This document shows, piece by piece, positions 46,346 through 52,654 of a DNA stretch of 64,000 bases. A program made the translations under genes and the position numbers. The first letter of the stretch is position 1. The number at the start of each line of letters is the position of its first letter. This stretch comes from an uncultured Verrucomicrobiae bacterium (lineage in GTDB: Bacteria > Verrucomicrobiota > Verrucomicrobiia > Limisphaerales > Palsa-1400), in contig CAVXRD010000003.1 of the NCBI GenBank assembly GCA_963764165.1, positions 139,060-203,059 of the forward strand, read 5' to 3'. The notes beneath the pieces are model-generated. The model searched no databases. It had not been told where the DNA came from and saw nothing but the letters and a program-made list of their open reading frames with translations.

Positions 46346-49300
46346 GTGTTCATCAAGCCTAAATCAAAAGAGTTTATTCGGAATCGGCTCTGCCATTGGG
46401 AGGTCGTCTCTTTCGCTGTCATGGCGATTTGTGGGCTGCTTTGCCCCGGGCTGGCGCGCGCGCAGGCTCCGGCTGCCCTGACGGATTTGGGGACAGTCGC
46501 GCCCAATCCGGGCAAATACGATGTTTCACAGTTGAGCGCCGCCGGCGAAGCGAACATGCCCGACGGCCTGAACTACTATACTGACAACCAGTCCAATCAC
46601 GGCGCGGGCGAACCGGGGCAGACGTTTACGACGGGCACCAACGCCCTCACTTATACGCTCAATACCCTGGCCATCCGCACGGGCGGGGGATCTTCTTCTG
46701 GAACAACCACTCCGCAAAGTTATTTGCTGCATATCTATTCTGTGAGCAATGGCACTGCGGCCGTAATAGCCACTTATATTGCAACGAATGTCACTTTCAA
46801 CGATGGTGACTGGCTGCGGTGGAGTGGATTGGCGGTGACGTTTTCGCCTGCGAGCGTTTACGGCTATTCGTTCGGAAAAGCTTCCGGCGCCACCTCTGGA
46901 TGGGATGGCATGGGAAACTCCGGGGGTAATCCTTACGCTGGCGGTGAGTTGGGGTTGCTGCCGGTTGCAGGTGGCGCAGTTACCTTTGGCGCCAGCCATA
47001 ATTACGACGCCATTTTTGACATTGGACTGACTTCCAATGGTCCATCGGCGGCGGTGATCACGAATAATCCACCGACAGTGATCCAATCCACCTCTGCCAC
47101 GCTGGCCGGAACAGTCCTATCCACTGGGGGCAGTGCGCCGGTGGTGAGGATTTTTTACGGACCGGCGGACGGCGGAACGAACGCCAACGCCTGGGCCAAC
47201 AGCGTCGCGCTGGGAGCAGAATCCGGTGGTTTTTCAACGACGGTGACGGGATTGTCCGCGAGCAAAACGTACTTTTTTGCCGCCCAAGCGTCAAACGTGT
47301 ACGGGATTTCCTGGGCTCAACCGTCCGAAAATTTCACGACGCTGGCGGATACGAATCCGGCTCCAGCCGTGCTCACGGATTTGGGCGCCGCCGCGCCGAC
47401 TCCGGGCTTGAACGACGTCTCCCAATTCAGCACGACGGGCGATTCAGATACGCCGGACAATCTGAATTACTACACTGACAATCAACCTGGGCACAACGCT
47501 GGCGAGCCAGGCCAGACGTTTACGACTCCTGAGAATTCCTCCGGATTCCTGCTGGCTTCGGTCGCCCTGAAAACGGGTGGGGGAACCAGCTCCGGCACCA
47601 CCACGCCGCAAGGGTATTTGCTCCATATTTATTCGGTGAGCAACGGCACAGCCTCGGTGCTGGCGACCTTCAGCGCCACAAACTTTGCTTTTAGTGACGG
47701 TGACTGGCTGCAATGGAGCGGCTTGAATGTGTCTCTCTCCGCAGGCGCTGTTTACGGTTATTCATTTGGCAAGATTTCAAGCGCGGTCGGAGGCTGGGAA
47801 GCGATGGCCAACGCCAGCGGCAGCCCTTACGCCGGTGGCGAACTGGCCTTGATGCCGGTGGCCGGAGGATCGATTACTTTTGGCGCCAGTCATTCTTATG
47901 ACGCGGTTTTCGACATCGGGCTGACCTCGACCGGCCCTCCCACAGTGGCACGGATTGCAAACAGCCCGGCGACGGCGATCCAGGCGTCATCCGCTGCCTT
48001 GAATGGACAAGTGGTTGCCAGCGGCGGCAGCTTGCCGCTGATTTCTTTTTTTTATGGGACCGTCGACGGCGGAACAAACGCCGCGGCGTGGTCCAATAGA
48101 ATTACGGTTGGATCGGAATTGGGGAGTTTCACCGCGACTGTCACGGGGTTGCAGAGCAACTCGACGTACTACTACACGGCGGAAGCGTCCAACGCCGCGG
48201 GAGTTTCATGGGCTGTACCTTCCGCCAGTTTCACTACGCCCGCCACAGTATCCGTGCCGGCAGTGACGAATCTTCCCGCCACTTTCGTATCCGGAGCGAC
48301 AGCGACCTTGAATGGACAGGTCCTCAATACGGGCAACGAGTGGCCGCTCATTTCCGTTTATTACGGAACAAACGATGGCGGGACAAATGCAGTCGCGTGG
48401 TCAAACGCAGTCTCCCTTCCGGCGCAATCCGGCCCTTTCAGCGCCCAGATTGTTGGATTAATTCAAGGTGTCAAATACTACTTCACCGTCTCCGCATCAA
48501 ATTCGGCAGGAGTGAGCTGGGCACAGCCATCGCTTAGCTTCACGACGTTGACCGTGACTCGGGTGCCAGTGCTGACCTATCATTACGATAACACCCGCCA
48601 GGGCTGGAATTCAAATGAAACGGCGCTTTCGCCAGCGAACGTCAATACGGCCAGCTTTGGGAAATTATTCACCTATGCGGTCGACGGATATGTCTATGCG
48701 CAGCCGCTGATTGTCACCAACTTGACCATTCCAGGCAGGGGAGTGCGCGATGTGGTTTTTGTGGCAACGGAGCACGACTCCATTTTTGCTTTTGACGCAA
48801 ATAGCAATGGAGACGCCAGCGGCGGATTGCTTTGGAAAACAAATGTGGGAATCTCCGCTGTCTCTCCCTCCACTGAATATGGCTTGCGCTACCACGGGGT
48901 GGGAAATCTGGACATGGTTCCCGAAGAGGGCATGACGGGAGCGCCGGTCATTGACCTCGCCACCGGGACGCTTTTTGTGGACGCATTCACGCGGGAAGTC
49001 GTCGCTGGGATTTCCACCAATTACTATCATCGCATCCATGCCTTGAACATTACCAATGGAATGGAGCAGCCCTACAGTCCGGTGGTGGTCGCCGCCACGG
49101 TGCCTGGCACGGGCGTGTCTGGAAATGGAACGGGCAGCCCTGAAACAGAAAACGGAACCAATGTCACATTTTCAGCAATTCAAGAATGCCAGCGCCCGGC
49201 GCTGACATTGGCTGGCGGAGTATTATATGTATGCTATGGCAGTCATGATGACACTGACCCGTATCATGGCTGGGTCTTCGGCTACAATAGCACCAATCTG

Positions 49301-52300: not shown

Positions 52301-52654
52301 AACGGCTCCCTGCCCACCACCAATTCGTTCCTCTATGCCGGCCCGTTCGTTCTGGCCAGCAACGCCACCGTTTTGGCCAGCGCCTTCGAGCCTGATTTCA
52401 ACCACAGCGTTTCGGCCAGCGCTCTTTTTGTCGTCGAGCCCGTCCAAATTTCCTTCGGGCAGTTTTTAACCAATGGGCAATTTCAGTTGCAAGTGATGGG
52501 CGCTCCGGGCAGCAACTACGTGCTGCAAGCGACCACAAATTTATTAAAATGGACGTCGTTGAGCACCAATCTTCTGCAGTCCAATTTGTTGTATCTCGTC
52601 GATCCCGGCGCCACCAACCACCCATTGCGCTTCTATCGCGTTCTTCAACAATAA
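46346..52654 (+). CDS. Giant secreted protein: 2 unassigned domains, 3 FN3-like repeats, PQQ-type propeller, CHB_HEX_C-like, PA14, Ig, diheme cytochrome c, CHB_HEX_C-like, C-terminal domain
   Basis: VLTYHYDNTRQG..FGKLF..VDG.VYAQPL and DLGSGG..GKDG propeller motifs; FTVRWTG PA14; LWSDGA.K.R..FP.GTVFVKTF..LETRLL; CLQCH at 51671 and CAQCH at 51914. The ORF is open from 45962; the likely start is GTG 46346. Confidence 0.85.
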   Translation: MFIKPKSKEFIRNRLCHWEVVSFAVMAICGLLCPGLARAQAPAALTDLGTVAPNPGKYDVSQLSAAGEANMPDGLNYYTDNQSNHGAGEPGQTFTTGTNALTYTLNTLAIRTGGGSSSGTTTPQSYLLHIYSVSNGTAAVIATYIATNVTFNDGDWLRWSGLAVTFSPASVYGYSFGKASGATSGWDGMGNSGGNPYAGGELGLLPVAGGAVTFGASHNYDAIFDIGLTSNGPSAAVITNNPPTVIQSTSATLAGTVLSTGGSAPVVRIFYGPADGGTNANAWANSVALGAESGGFSTTVTGLSASKTYFFAAQASNVYGISWAQPSENFTTLADTNPAPAVLTDLGAAAPTPGLNDVSQFSTTGDSDTPDNLNYYTDNQPGHNAGEPGQTFTTPENSSGFLLASVALKTGGGTSSGTTTPQGYLLHIYSVSNGTASVLATFSATNFAFSDGDWLQWSGLNVSLSAGAVYGYSFGKISSAVGGWEAMANASGSPYAGGELALMPVAGGSITFGASHSYDAVFDIGLTSTGPPTVARIANSPATAIQASSAALNGQVVASGGSLPLISFFYGTVDGGTNAAAWSNRITVGSELGSFTATVTGLQSNSTYYYTAEASNAAGVSWAVPSASFTTPATVSVPAVTNLPATFVSGATATLNGQVLNTGNEWPLISVYYGTNDGGTNAVAWSNAVSLPAQSGPFSAQIVGLIQGVKYYFTVSASNSAGVSWAQPSLSFTTLTVTRVPVLTYHYDNTRQGWNSNETALSPANVNTASFGKLFTYAVDGYVYAQPLIVTNLTIPGRGVRDVVFVATEHDSIFAFDANSNGDASGGLLWKTNVGISAVSPSTEYGLRYHGVGNLDMVPEEGMTGAPVIDLATGTLFVDAFTREVVAGISTNYYHRIHALNITNGMEQPYSPVVVAATVPGTGVSGNGTGSPETENGTNVTFSAIQECQRPALTLAGGVLYVCYGSHDDTDPYHGWVFGYNSTNLAMLSVFNTTPNATLAAFGGNAGEGAIWMSGNGLCVDANTNLYFLTGNGSFSQNTNGGDYSDSFVKLSTASNKLTVADYFTPYNQASLQASDSDLGSGGVMLLPDSAGSTSHPHLIVGCGKDGNIRLVDRDNMGHYNAANDNQAVQELPGAVGGTWSSPAYFNHLIFYEGSGDVMKAFYITNGVISSTPISQSSTSIGFPGATPTISSSGTNNGIAWVIDDGAYLSSGPAVLHAYNATNLAIELYNSSQDLPRDNPGPAVKMVPPVVAGGKVYVGAQYALSVFGSAVFMAAPTISPASGPFTNSITVTLADANGGASIYYTLDGTAPSTSSILYTGPFLLTNSAIVQAIAAAPGAVNSAAVSASFLNSAASGAGIGLTGSYFANSTSANPFAGSPVLTQTNATINFNWGMNGPSPVVGGTNFTVRWTGSIQPQFSEAYTLYLTANAGARLYINGQLFINGWQNQTNAATLSNSIPLVAQQLYGIELDYYQTTNDASVSLSWSSPSTPMAIVPETQLYPFTNPPPSVALIAPANASSYTAAASVSMSADADAPYNPISMVSFYANGSLIDSVTNPPYTVTVTGLAAGNYTLTAVAVDGSGLSSTTAPINIAVTAATGQPYGLTNRSPAPAFFNMPTTFAGPLPGLLSQTGVFGNTANMAPVGGLIPYLPNVPLWSDGALKTRYFAVPGGGGIGTPNQQISFAPTGTWSFPAGTVFVKTFQLNTDTSNPNVLHRLETRLLVRDINGAVYGVTYKWRPDNSDADLLTNSLTEQILITNSTGVAAQTWYYPSPADCLQCHTAPANYVLGVSTRQLNGNGTYPSTGVTDNQLRALNRLGLFNPAFDEASITNMEKLSALTNLGAPLVERARSYLDANCAQCHQPGGTGITFDARYDTPLASQNITNYPAAISLGYDNACIIKSQDIWRSMIYQRMNTTNAGVKMPPLARNLIDTNAVAVMAGWINSLPGIPALAPPVITPDGGAFFSTVSISLAAPDTNAAVYYTLNGSLPTTNSFLYAGPFVLASNATVLASAFEPDFNHSVSASALFVVEPVQISFGQFLTNGQFQLQVMGAPGSNYVLQATTNLLKWTSLSTNLLQSNLLYLVDPGATNHPLRFYRVLQQ

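Follow-up and report, generated by a model that had tools for sequence, protein, structure and literature searches.

What might a protein do that joins a β-propeller, carbohydrate-binding-type modules and a dihaem cytochrome c in a single chain? The question is raised by the gene at positions 46346–52654 (+) of a 64,000-nucleotide (nt) stretch of DNA from an uncultured Verrucomicrobiae bacterium (contig CAVXRD010000003.1, positions 139,060 to 203,059; hereafter the window), which encodes a giant protein of 2,102 amino acids (aa). We propose that this protein is a modular, glycan-directed dehydrogenase of the quinohaemoprotein type, with a propeller that would employ pyrroloquinoline quinone (PQQ), and rate the chance that this reading is correct a little better than even.

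The gene is one intact open reading frame (ORF), and the propeller, PA14 domain, Ig/FN3 spacers and two CxxCH motifs within an SO2930-like domain that an earlier note on this DNA had read from its letters were each found in place (Table 1). In its longest version, the frame opens at 45962 and closes at 52654. As a start at 45962 would overlap the divergent gene 44010–46037(−), and as GTG 46346 yields a plausible Sec signal peptide, the latter codon appears a reasonable start. Inspection of the translation revealed a signal peptide with a basic n-region, a hydrophobic core and an ARA/QA site (MFIKPKSKEFIRNRL...GLARAQA/PAAL), and no lipobox.

Propeller and cytochrome are joined in many other genomes. 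When residues 745–1944 were used as a query against 1.84 billion cluster representatives, numerous representatives aligned unbroken from the propeller through the cytochrome (P0241, P0243, P0244, P0246–P0250, P0252, P0256, P0262, P0263), the closest fused homologue being P0241 (2,127 aa, 68% identity). Local scans with hidden Markov models (HMMs) placed both domains in one chain in 27 of the 150 best 50%-identity cluster representatives, and a scan of one genome for each species in the Genome Taxonomy Database (GTDB) revealed them in the same intact ORF at 45 of the 80 nearest loci. Homologues with 62–80% identity occur in many independent assemblies, a similarity far beyond chance. The fused loci stem from many independent metagenome-assembled genome (MAG) projects, belong almost all to Verrucomicrobiia (subdivision 3, Pedosphaera, Limisphaerales), and often come as several paralogues per genome. 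Three orthologues (L075, L024, L007) are collinear with residues ~340–2102 (62–69% identity over ~1,775 residues) and contain a single N-terminal repeat unit, consisting of a domain here termed Nrep and an FN3-like spacer, i.e. one unit fewer than the window protein. Since its two copies are only 62% (aa) or 66% (nt) identical, the extra unit arose, judged by this divergence, through tandem duplication long ago and not through faulty assembly.

A misassembled fusion, which the earlier note had considered, or two genes read through as one, would seem to be suggested by two database entries (P0140 and P0214) in which SO2930 stands 'alone' adjoining propeller fragments. Yet both come from long-read assemblies that are rich in frameshifts and split neighbouring genes too, and tblastn recovered the same collinear protein over three frames. 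Together with the intact single ORFs of the same order at 45 loci, this rules out misassembly and read-through, to which we attach a practically negligible probability; the fusion is real. Similarly, in two long-read assemblies from ENA (L001, L002), frameshifts cut the orthologue of the giant gene, as well as GH3 and GH10 genes close to it, into 3–4 called genes, so that a database 'protein' of 450–600 aa with SO2930 and CHB_HEX_C is often a piece of a longer chain and not an architecture of its own. Between propeller and SO2930, the spacers vary, from CHB-PA14-Big_7 in the giant protein to CHB alone (P0258, P0265, P0293) or none (P0383, a protein of 934 aa with SO2930 directly behind the propeller). 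That the pair is kept although the spacers differ argues for functional coupling of the two domains.

The propeller, near whose beginning the sequence VLTYHYDN starts at residue 742 (nt 48569), was modelled with AF2 (pLDDT 83.9, pTM 0.89, ~31 strands). Foldseek searches of PDB with this model returned 8-bladed PQQ-type folds as all 50 of the 50 best matches (TM 0.44–0.58, 9–14% identity), among them tetrathionate hydrolase (E 1.7e-13), BamB, the quinohaemoprotein alcohol dehydrogenases (ADHs) 8gy2 and 1kv9, PedH, XoxF and methanol dehydrogenase (MDH). The predicted fold of the propeller is PQQ-type and eight-bladed, a fold which by itself cannot tell PQQ enzymes from BamB-like proteins. In line with the earlier note, which had assigned the propeller to a different, uncharacterised type, it lacked any Pfam, NCBIfam or PDB sequence match; sub-threshold matches to Pfam PQQ_2 were seen in 13 of 40 homologues (best E 8e-4). 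The family comprises at least 7,885 proteins at E<=0.001 (90%-identity protein clusters), mostly from soil or peat Verrucomicrobiota, which either stand alone (~600 aa) or are fused to CHB_HEX_C, PA14, LamG, ricin, Calx-beta, PKD or GLEYA domains. Its members carry no Pfam domain in the propeller and hardly any is named; in the databases and literature searched, we found no characterised, named or solved representative of either the propeller family or the SO2930 clade.

Profile comparisons were run to tell the two kinds of eight-bladed protein apart. As references for HHalign served nine PQQ dehydrogenases, E. coli Gcd plus eight plasmid-encoded ones from the glucose/quinate and methanol/ethanol families (small template alignments of 4–9 sequences each), with E. 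coli BamB as the control. Global mode was uninformative. The profile of 275 diverse propellers matched the methanol/ethanol family with 95.9% (E 6e-9), the Gcd family with 94.6% (E 6e-8) and both combined with 96.6% (E 6e-10), in full-length, collinear alignments of ~430 columns, vs. 8.7% for BamB. Among the reference profiles, the methanol/ethanol dehydrogenases scored 100% against the Gcd family and 96% against BamB. Because of the difference between 94.6–96.6% and 8.7%, the propeller family is, at the level of sequence profiles, a remote homologue of PQQ dehydrogenases and nearer to them than to BamB, in agreement with the PQQ type that the earlier note had given it. A propeller unrelated to PQQ dehydrogenases, as it had appeared from Pfam, NCBIfam, the PDB profile search and an HHalign comparison with 40 homologues, is overturned by the full-length matches (95–97%) of the 275-sequence profile. 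A BamB-type assembly lipoprotein is likewise ruled out by the HHalign score (8.7%), the missing lipobox and the ~540-aa domain.

Across the 275 propellers (down to ~31% identity), ~25 polar residues distributed over all eight blades are at least 90–95% invariant, and several of them align with residues that we assume to be functional in the dehydrogenases. Invariant W1012 corresponds to Gcd W404, which we take to be the PQQ-stacking tryptophan, and invariant D1076 and D1078 to Gcd D466 and D468, presumably the catalytic base and a second aspartate (Gcd and combined alignments). In every alignment, invariant K1105 falls opposite Gcd K493 and methanol/ethanol R358 (MDH R331 type), both taken to bind PQQ, and invariant N1032 opposite methanol/ethanol N289, presumably a metal ligand (MDH N261 type). 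Methanol/ethanol E205, which we take for the metal-binding glutamate of MDH E177 type, pairs with either D969, which is invariant, or T970. The residue types of Gcd were confirmed at the quoted numbers in the E. coli sequence (9 of 9), the roles being those of the mutagenesis literature. The alignment of invariant residues with PQQ, metal and catalytic positions is encouraging rather than decisive. D1076-S-D1078 forms a DxD motif, a lanthanide-type signature: in 8-bladed PQQ enzymes, the second aspartate marks lanthanide-dependent members and is absent from the Ca-dependent MxaF (bioRxiv 10.64898/2026.07.10.737718).

The C-terminal SO2930 domain matches the SO2930 family of dihaem cytochromes (TIGR03806) over model positions 2–314 of 314, with 207 bits vs. 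a curated cut-off of 313. Scores in this clade range from 205 to 257 bits; as stand-alone relatives (242–257 bits) and relatives fused to GSDH, a soluble PQQ sugar dehydrogenase, also fall below the cut-off, the clade is, by these scores, a divergent sister of the TIGR03806 family. Conservation was assessed in 83 sequences, i.e. the giant protein and 82 loci with identities as low as 52%. In all of these, the two CxxCH motifs, whose lack of conservation would have counted against the reading of the earlier note, are 100% conserved, as is Met1923, the probable axial ligand of haem 2. In an AF2 model (pLDDT 88, pTM 0.87), a β-rich subdomain is followed right behind by CxxCH-1 and then by a helical region with an N-terminal helix ahead of CxxCH-2, and Met1923 lies ~60 residues past CxxCH-2, before the C-terminal helix. 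In this model, the CxxCH-2 region is laid out like class-I cytochrome c, and weak matches to Pfam Cytochrom_C and Cytochrome_CBB3 cover the CxxCH-2 part only. Foldseek returned no PDB match for the domain at E<=0.001, and a profile search of PDB hit the flanking CHB_HEX_C and Ig parts alone. Weak hints at cytochrome P460 were dismissed, as they concern the CxxCH motif only. In the literature found, SO2930 appears merely in a list, with no description of the family's function and no solved structure. Ahead of SO2930, the giant protein contains PYGLTNR (window 51149–51170, residues 1602–1608), part of a 'PYGLxxR...F(L/F)N..LP' motif. In GSDH-SO2930 fusions (L053, L068, L076, L082), the same motif stands ahead of GSDH, directly behind the signal peptide; this shift in position suggests that a shared SO2930 framework either gained a GSDH module by insertion or lost one.

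Which partners does SO2930 have elsewhere? Its usual association with GSDH, as claimed in the earlier note, stands only in that such fusions exist: GSDH (PF07995, TIGR03606) is fused directly ahead of SO2930 at six of the 80 loci (L053, L055, L064, L068, L076, L082) and in the representative P0294, seven fusions in all with the same N-to-C order (dehydrogenase, then SO2930) and short linkers. The commonest partner is the 8-bladed propeller described here (45 of 80). Stand-alone SO2930 proteins of 460–560 aa account for ~21 of the 80 loci (Steroidobacteraceae, Opitutae, Verrucomicrobiia), and in at least 12 of 20 such loci the gene has a convergent neighbour matching TIGR03866 ('PQQ-dependent catabolism-associated beta-propeller protein', E 2.5e-72), a 7-bladed propeller resembling E. 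coli YncE (among them L054, L056, L057, L060, L063, L066, L069, L071, L072, L074, L081; ~7.8–10.4 kb in each). Directly upstream of the stand-alone gene lies a TonB-dependent receptor in L054, L066 and L070, and a cytochrome b561 gene in L060. This layout recalls the E. coli pqqU-yncE locus, where yncE sits beside pqqU. The receptors give no ground for PqqU orthology, their likeness being generic (26% identity, 67–146 bits vs. a cut-off of 1200 bits). As far as these gene arrangements go, the association of SO2930 with PQQ-type systems is real and takes three different forms. Joining to GSDH fits an electron-acceptor module because it is repeated with a different PQQ fold, in the same order and with short linkers.

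The dehydrogenase that we propose would work as follows. The protein would be secreted, and its propeller, which we place as a highly diverged branch among the PQQ-dependent dehydrogenases, would accommodate PQQ together with Ca2+ or a lanthanide in the central channel, with D969, N1032, D1076 and D1078 as putative metal ligands, D1076 as the catalytic base, W1012 stacking on PQQ and K1105 binding it. PA14, the CHB_HEX_C modules and probably Nrep would hold the enzyme on a glycan, allowing the propeller to oxidise a hydroxyl or hemiacetal group of the carbohydrate. Electrons might then enter the SO2930 dihaem domain of the same chain, with His/Met-coordinated haem 2 as the relay, and leave to an external acceptor, candidates for which are the respiratory chain, a soluble cytochrome, a metallo-oxygenase, or O2/H2O2 at haem 1.

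Several observations weigh against this proposal. The propeller domain gave no match at E<=1 in Pfam and NCBIfam (including PF01011/PF13360/PF13570 and the PQQ dehydrogenase families), and a search of PDB sequences with the 40-homologue profile gave none either. As the profile of 40 close homologues reaches just 47% at most against the PQQ dehydrogenases in HHalign, homology depends on one diverse profile and on small templates of 4–9 sequences. The residue matches, too, are not fully independent evidence, since HHalign tends to pair conserved columns; in the alignment to the methanol/ethanol family only, the Asp pair falls 5 residues upstream of D1076, beside a gap. The alignments showed no counterpart of Gcd H262, D730 or H775. 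No vicinal Cys–Cys is present in the propeller, whose cysteines are C948, C963, C1019 and C1103, the aligned positions being N854/L855; such a disulphide over PQQ is confined to the methanol/ethanol type and has no counterpart in glucose-type enzymes. Furthermore, ~350 spacer residues separate propeller and haems in the giant protein, the majority of the aligned propellers lack a cytochrome (208 of 275, with 67 fused to SO2930), and a comparison of the 67 fused with the 208 unfused propellers yielded no fusion-specific residue. Neither pqq nor cytochrome c maturation (ccm/ccs) genes, which the earlier note had suggested looking for, lie within the window, a finding that is not decisive since many bacteria import PQQ. 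Lastly, none of the 83 haem-domain sequences offers a conserved His or Met as sixth ligand of haem 1, and the ~150-aa β subdomain before it is strikingly conserved (Y1650, W1657, K1700, R1716, E1718, Y1731, Y1735, K1736, W1737, W1768, Y1770). Owing to this combination of a haem that lacks a conserved sixth ligand and a conserved preceding subdomain, SO2930 may be catalytic in its own right.

The latter point leads to a different explanation, namely two independent activities on one scaffold: a propeller that binds or cleaves glycans without redox chemistry (a hydrolase or lyase) and an SO2930 haem enzyme (e.g. a peroxidase or oxygenase), co-localised on the polysaccharide. Haem 1 would then be the open catalytic site, the β subdomain, which has no structural relative, the substrate pocket, and haem 2, with its Met1923, the point of electron entry. 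The existence of stand-alone SO2930 proteins and of a cytochrome-free majority in the propeller family agrees with such a division of labour, as does the sharing of the fold by the non-PQQ proteins tetrathionate hydrolase and BamB, which head the Foldseek list. What makes us consider this explanation unlikely, albeit worth keeping in mind, is that the propeller aligns over its full length with PQQ dehydrogenases and not with BamB, that residues invariant in its family align with the presumed sites for PQQ, metal and catalysis, and that SO2930 is repeatedly joined to genuine GSDH-type PQQ dehydrogenases in the same order and with short linkers.

Alternatively, the giant protein might be a non-enzymatic surface adhesin or matrix protein, with haems that pass electrons outside the cell to minerals or humic substances and a propeller that is just a binding platform. 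Its giant, repeat-rich architecture (Ig, FN3, PA14, LamG-type) with a shared C-terminal sorting-like domain would suit this role, and the adjacent paralogue (52731–56828) is devoid of any catalytic-looking domain. Set against these traits, the ~25 nearly invariant polar residues of the propeller are typical of an active site and not of a binding platform, two haems are far below known multihaem conduits, and the links to PQQ dehydrogenases would be left aside, rendering an adhesin highly improbable.

Returning to the proposed dehydrogenase, the characterised enzyme that comes nearest to it in design is the type II quinohaemoprotein ADH, i.e. a propeller with a C-terminal cytochrome c. Type II/III enzymes (Pseudomonas putida ADH IIB, 1kv9; Gluconobacter ADH subunit I, 8gy2) likewise place an 8-bladed propeller ahead of a c-type cytochrome in one chain (Foldseek E 5e-12 and 9e-13, respectively; TM ~0.55), and appear alike in the aligned metal, catalytic-Asp and Lys/Arg positions (HHalign 95–97% to the wider family). 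In contrast to them, the giant protein (~20% identity) has no Pfam/NCBIfam PQQ match and no vicinal disulphide, carries, where they have a monohaem class-I domain, the dihaem SO2930 domain, which includes a β subdomain and whose fold is unsolved, contains three β-sandwich modules between propeller and haems, and adds N-terminal Nrep/FN3 modules as well as the C-terminal sorting-like domain. Its presumed substrate is a glycan, theirs a small alcohol. E. coli Gcd and the glucose/quinate/shikimate family (HHalign 94.6%) resemble it in that Gcd W404, D466, D468 and K493 align exactly with its invariant W1012, D1076, D1078 and K1105, yet it lacks the N-terminal membrane anchor, and Gcd-type electron delivery to ubiquinone is not its design.

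Six-bladed PQQ sugar dehydrogenases of the GSDH type (PF07995), by comparison with the 8-bladed family, carry the same SO2930 clade C-terminal to the dehydrogenase in the seven fusions listed above, which share PA14, LamG and Big accessory modules with the giant protein's family and are likewise uncharacterised. Pairs of PQQ-6beta and cytochrome c4/c551, in which GSDH-type enzymes have cytochrome partners and are associated with carbohydrate loci, have been described (bioRxiv 10.64898/2026.07.10.737718). The fungal pyranose dehydrogenase (PDH) CcPDH (AA8-AA12-CBM1) and cellobiose dehydrogenase (CDH) follow the same design logic of a secreted sugar dehydrogenase with a tethered cytochrome and a carbohydrate-binding module (CBM), although no part is homologous: AA12 is six-bladed, CDH is a GMC flavoenzyme, the AA8 cytochrome is b-type, and CBM1 is unrelated to PA14. 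Pfam and NCBIfam gave no GSDH or GMC match in the giant protein, whose haem motifs are c-type CxxCH and not AA8. The comparison with CDH and PDH is, consequently, an analogy of design and not homology. As for the SO2930/HNE_0200 dihaem cytochromes (TIGR03806), the full-length match and both CxxCH motifs are alike, with a score below the curated cut-off. BamB and tetrathionate hydrolase, 8-bladed propellers without PQQ, are the top Foldseek matches by E-value (1.7e-13); compared with BamB (~350–370 aa), the propeller is larger (~540 aa) and has elaborate, dehydrogenase-like loops. The design principle is known, then; the parts and their presumed glycan targeting are new.

More tentatively, and with somewhat less than an even chance of being right, the VLTYHYDN family as a whole may form a large, overlooked clade of PQQ-dependent, possibly lanthanide-dependent (invariant DxD), glycan-specialised dehydrogenases with CBM-like modules, a subset of which would have a dihaem domain of new structure built into the same chain. 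Such enzymes would be functional counterparts, in bacteria, of the fungal CDH and PDH, and would make up a new enzyme class of the auxiliary-activity type. If the propeller does bind PQQ, surveys of PQQ and lanthanide enzymes by Pfam or custom HMMs overlook thousands of proteins from the abundant Verrucomicrobiota of soil, and bacteria would gain an extracellular or periplasmic carbohydrate-oxidising redox enzyme that could serve, e.g., as an electron donor in oxidative polysaccharide breakdown. The repeated fusion of SO2930 to two unrelated PQQ-type folds provides the first coherent functional context for this family, and short natural fusions (P0383-like, ~930 aa) offer concrete targets for expression.

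Table 1. Features of the giant gene and other genes of the window (window coordinates).
Feature	Position (nt)	Residues	Strand	Evidence
Putative GTG start and Sec signal peptide	46346–46468	1–41	+	n-region, core and ARA/QA site in translation
Nrep1, ~190 aa, domain of unassigned function	46469–47041	42–232	+	Internal repeat; no Pfam/NCBIfam match
FN3-like spacer a	47042–47350	233–335	+	Internal tblastn (three related copies); weak Pfam fn3 and Pur_ac_phosph_N
Nrep2, second tandem copy	47351–47935	336–530	+	62% aa, 66% nt identity to first Nrep-FN3 unit
FN3-like spacers b and c	47936–48550	~531–735	+	Pfam, internal tblastn
8-bladed PQQ-like β-propeller, putative catalytic domain	48551–50170	~736–1275	+	AF2 model, Foldseek, HHalign, 275-sequence conservation
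CHB_HEX_C_1 / Fn3_assoc module 1	50183–50380	1280–1345	+	Pfam E 1.5e-28; two copies in protein
PA14 carbohydrate-binding-type module	50423–50815	1360–1490	+	Pfam PF07691 E 5e-22; PDB RsgI3 PA14 6qe7 E 5e-48
Big_7 Ig-like module	50867–51073	1508–1576	+	Pfam E 2.5e-11; PDB 3pdd, 9kvu
SO2930-type dihaem c-type cytochrome domain (β subdomain, haem 1, haem 2)	51221–52183	1626–1946	+	TIGR03806 E 3e-61; AF2
CxxCH 1 (CLQCH)	51671–51685	C1776-L-Q-C1779-H1780	+	100% conserved in 83 sequences
CxxCH 2 (CAQCH), class-I-like	51914–51928	C1857-A-Q-C1860-H1861	+	100% conserved in 83 sequences; helix ahead of motif
Met1923 (KMPP), probable axial ligand of haem 2	52112–52114	1923	+	100% conserved in 83 sequences
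CHB_HEX_C module 2	52196–52441	~1951–2030	+	Pfam, internal tblastn
C-terminal domain, ~65 aa, ending RFYRVLQQ, and stop codon; candidate sorting/anchoring signal	52442–52654	2033–2102	+	Recurs in homologues
Neighbouring surface-type paralogue (2x Nrep, PKD, LamG, Ig) lacking haem motifs	52731–56828		+	Domain scans, internal tblastn
Nrep copies	46469–47041, 47351–47935, 52830–53411, 53721–54260		+	Internal tblastn
GH79-like gene	56851–58275		−	Window
GxGYxYP putative glycosidase	11314–13158			Window
AXE1/glucuronoyl-esterase-like gene	61412–62566		−	Window

The surroundings of related genes fit a glycan-directed enzyme, as relatives adjoin genes for glycoside hydrolases: the P0241 gene is next to GH125, SASA, GH2 and GH92 genes, and one stand-alone propeller gene next to GH92 and GH172, other contexts inspected being uninformative. 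In the window, a TonB receptor gene accompanies the carbohydrate-related genes of Table 1. The GH79-like gene and the gene upstream of the giant gene are not conserved neighbours in other loci. Upstream of the giant gene lie a Reg_prop/Y_Y_Y (hybrid two-component-like) sensor kinase with HisKA_3 (27280–31149) and a histidine kinase with PA14 in its sensor part together with a LuxR-type response regulator (37005–40834); these sensor systems may regulate the giant gene. Weakly similar kinase/regulator pairs adjoin fused genes in L003 and L014.

Two domains of the giant protein recur beyond it. Nrep (~190 aa; motifs GLNYYTDNQ...GEPGQTFTT...YLLHIYS...FDIGL) occurs in two copies each in the giant gene and the next gene, whose modules form an N-terminal extension of the fused protein in other genomes. 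It lacks any Pfam or NCBIfam match and returned 91 database matches in all. In many fused orthologues, Nrep is the first domain behind the signal peptide, and it also exists as small stand-alone proteins of 200–330 aa, one of them with a PEP-CTERM motif. The C-terminal F-Y-R-[VL] domain (~65 aa), for which no family model matches, lies at the very end of the chain in 136 of 386 fetched homologues and in 51 of 82 SO2930 ORFs. It also ends the ORFs 32725–34524(−) and 44010–46037(−), with a variant (MFYKVRVQ) at 56828, and is thus common to several otherwise unrelated secreted proteins of the window. This distribution suggests a signal for sorting or anchoring that is specific to the lineage Verrucomicrobiia.

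Elsewhere in the window, tandem repeats are trivial, and an AT-skew anomaly at 20–22 kb is explained by minus-strand membrane-protein genes. Between the regulator and surface-protein genes, a region of lower GC content (0.54; 40900–44000) contains small ORFs only, including an HTH_3 protein (41320–41904(−)) and a weak PIN-like ORF (42389–42772), as well as a perfect 3x10-bp repeat (40919–40948), and may represent a small mobile or toxin-antitoxin insertion.

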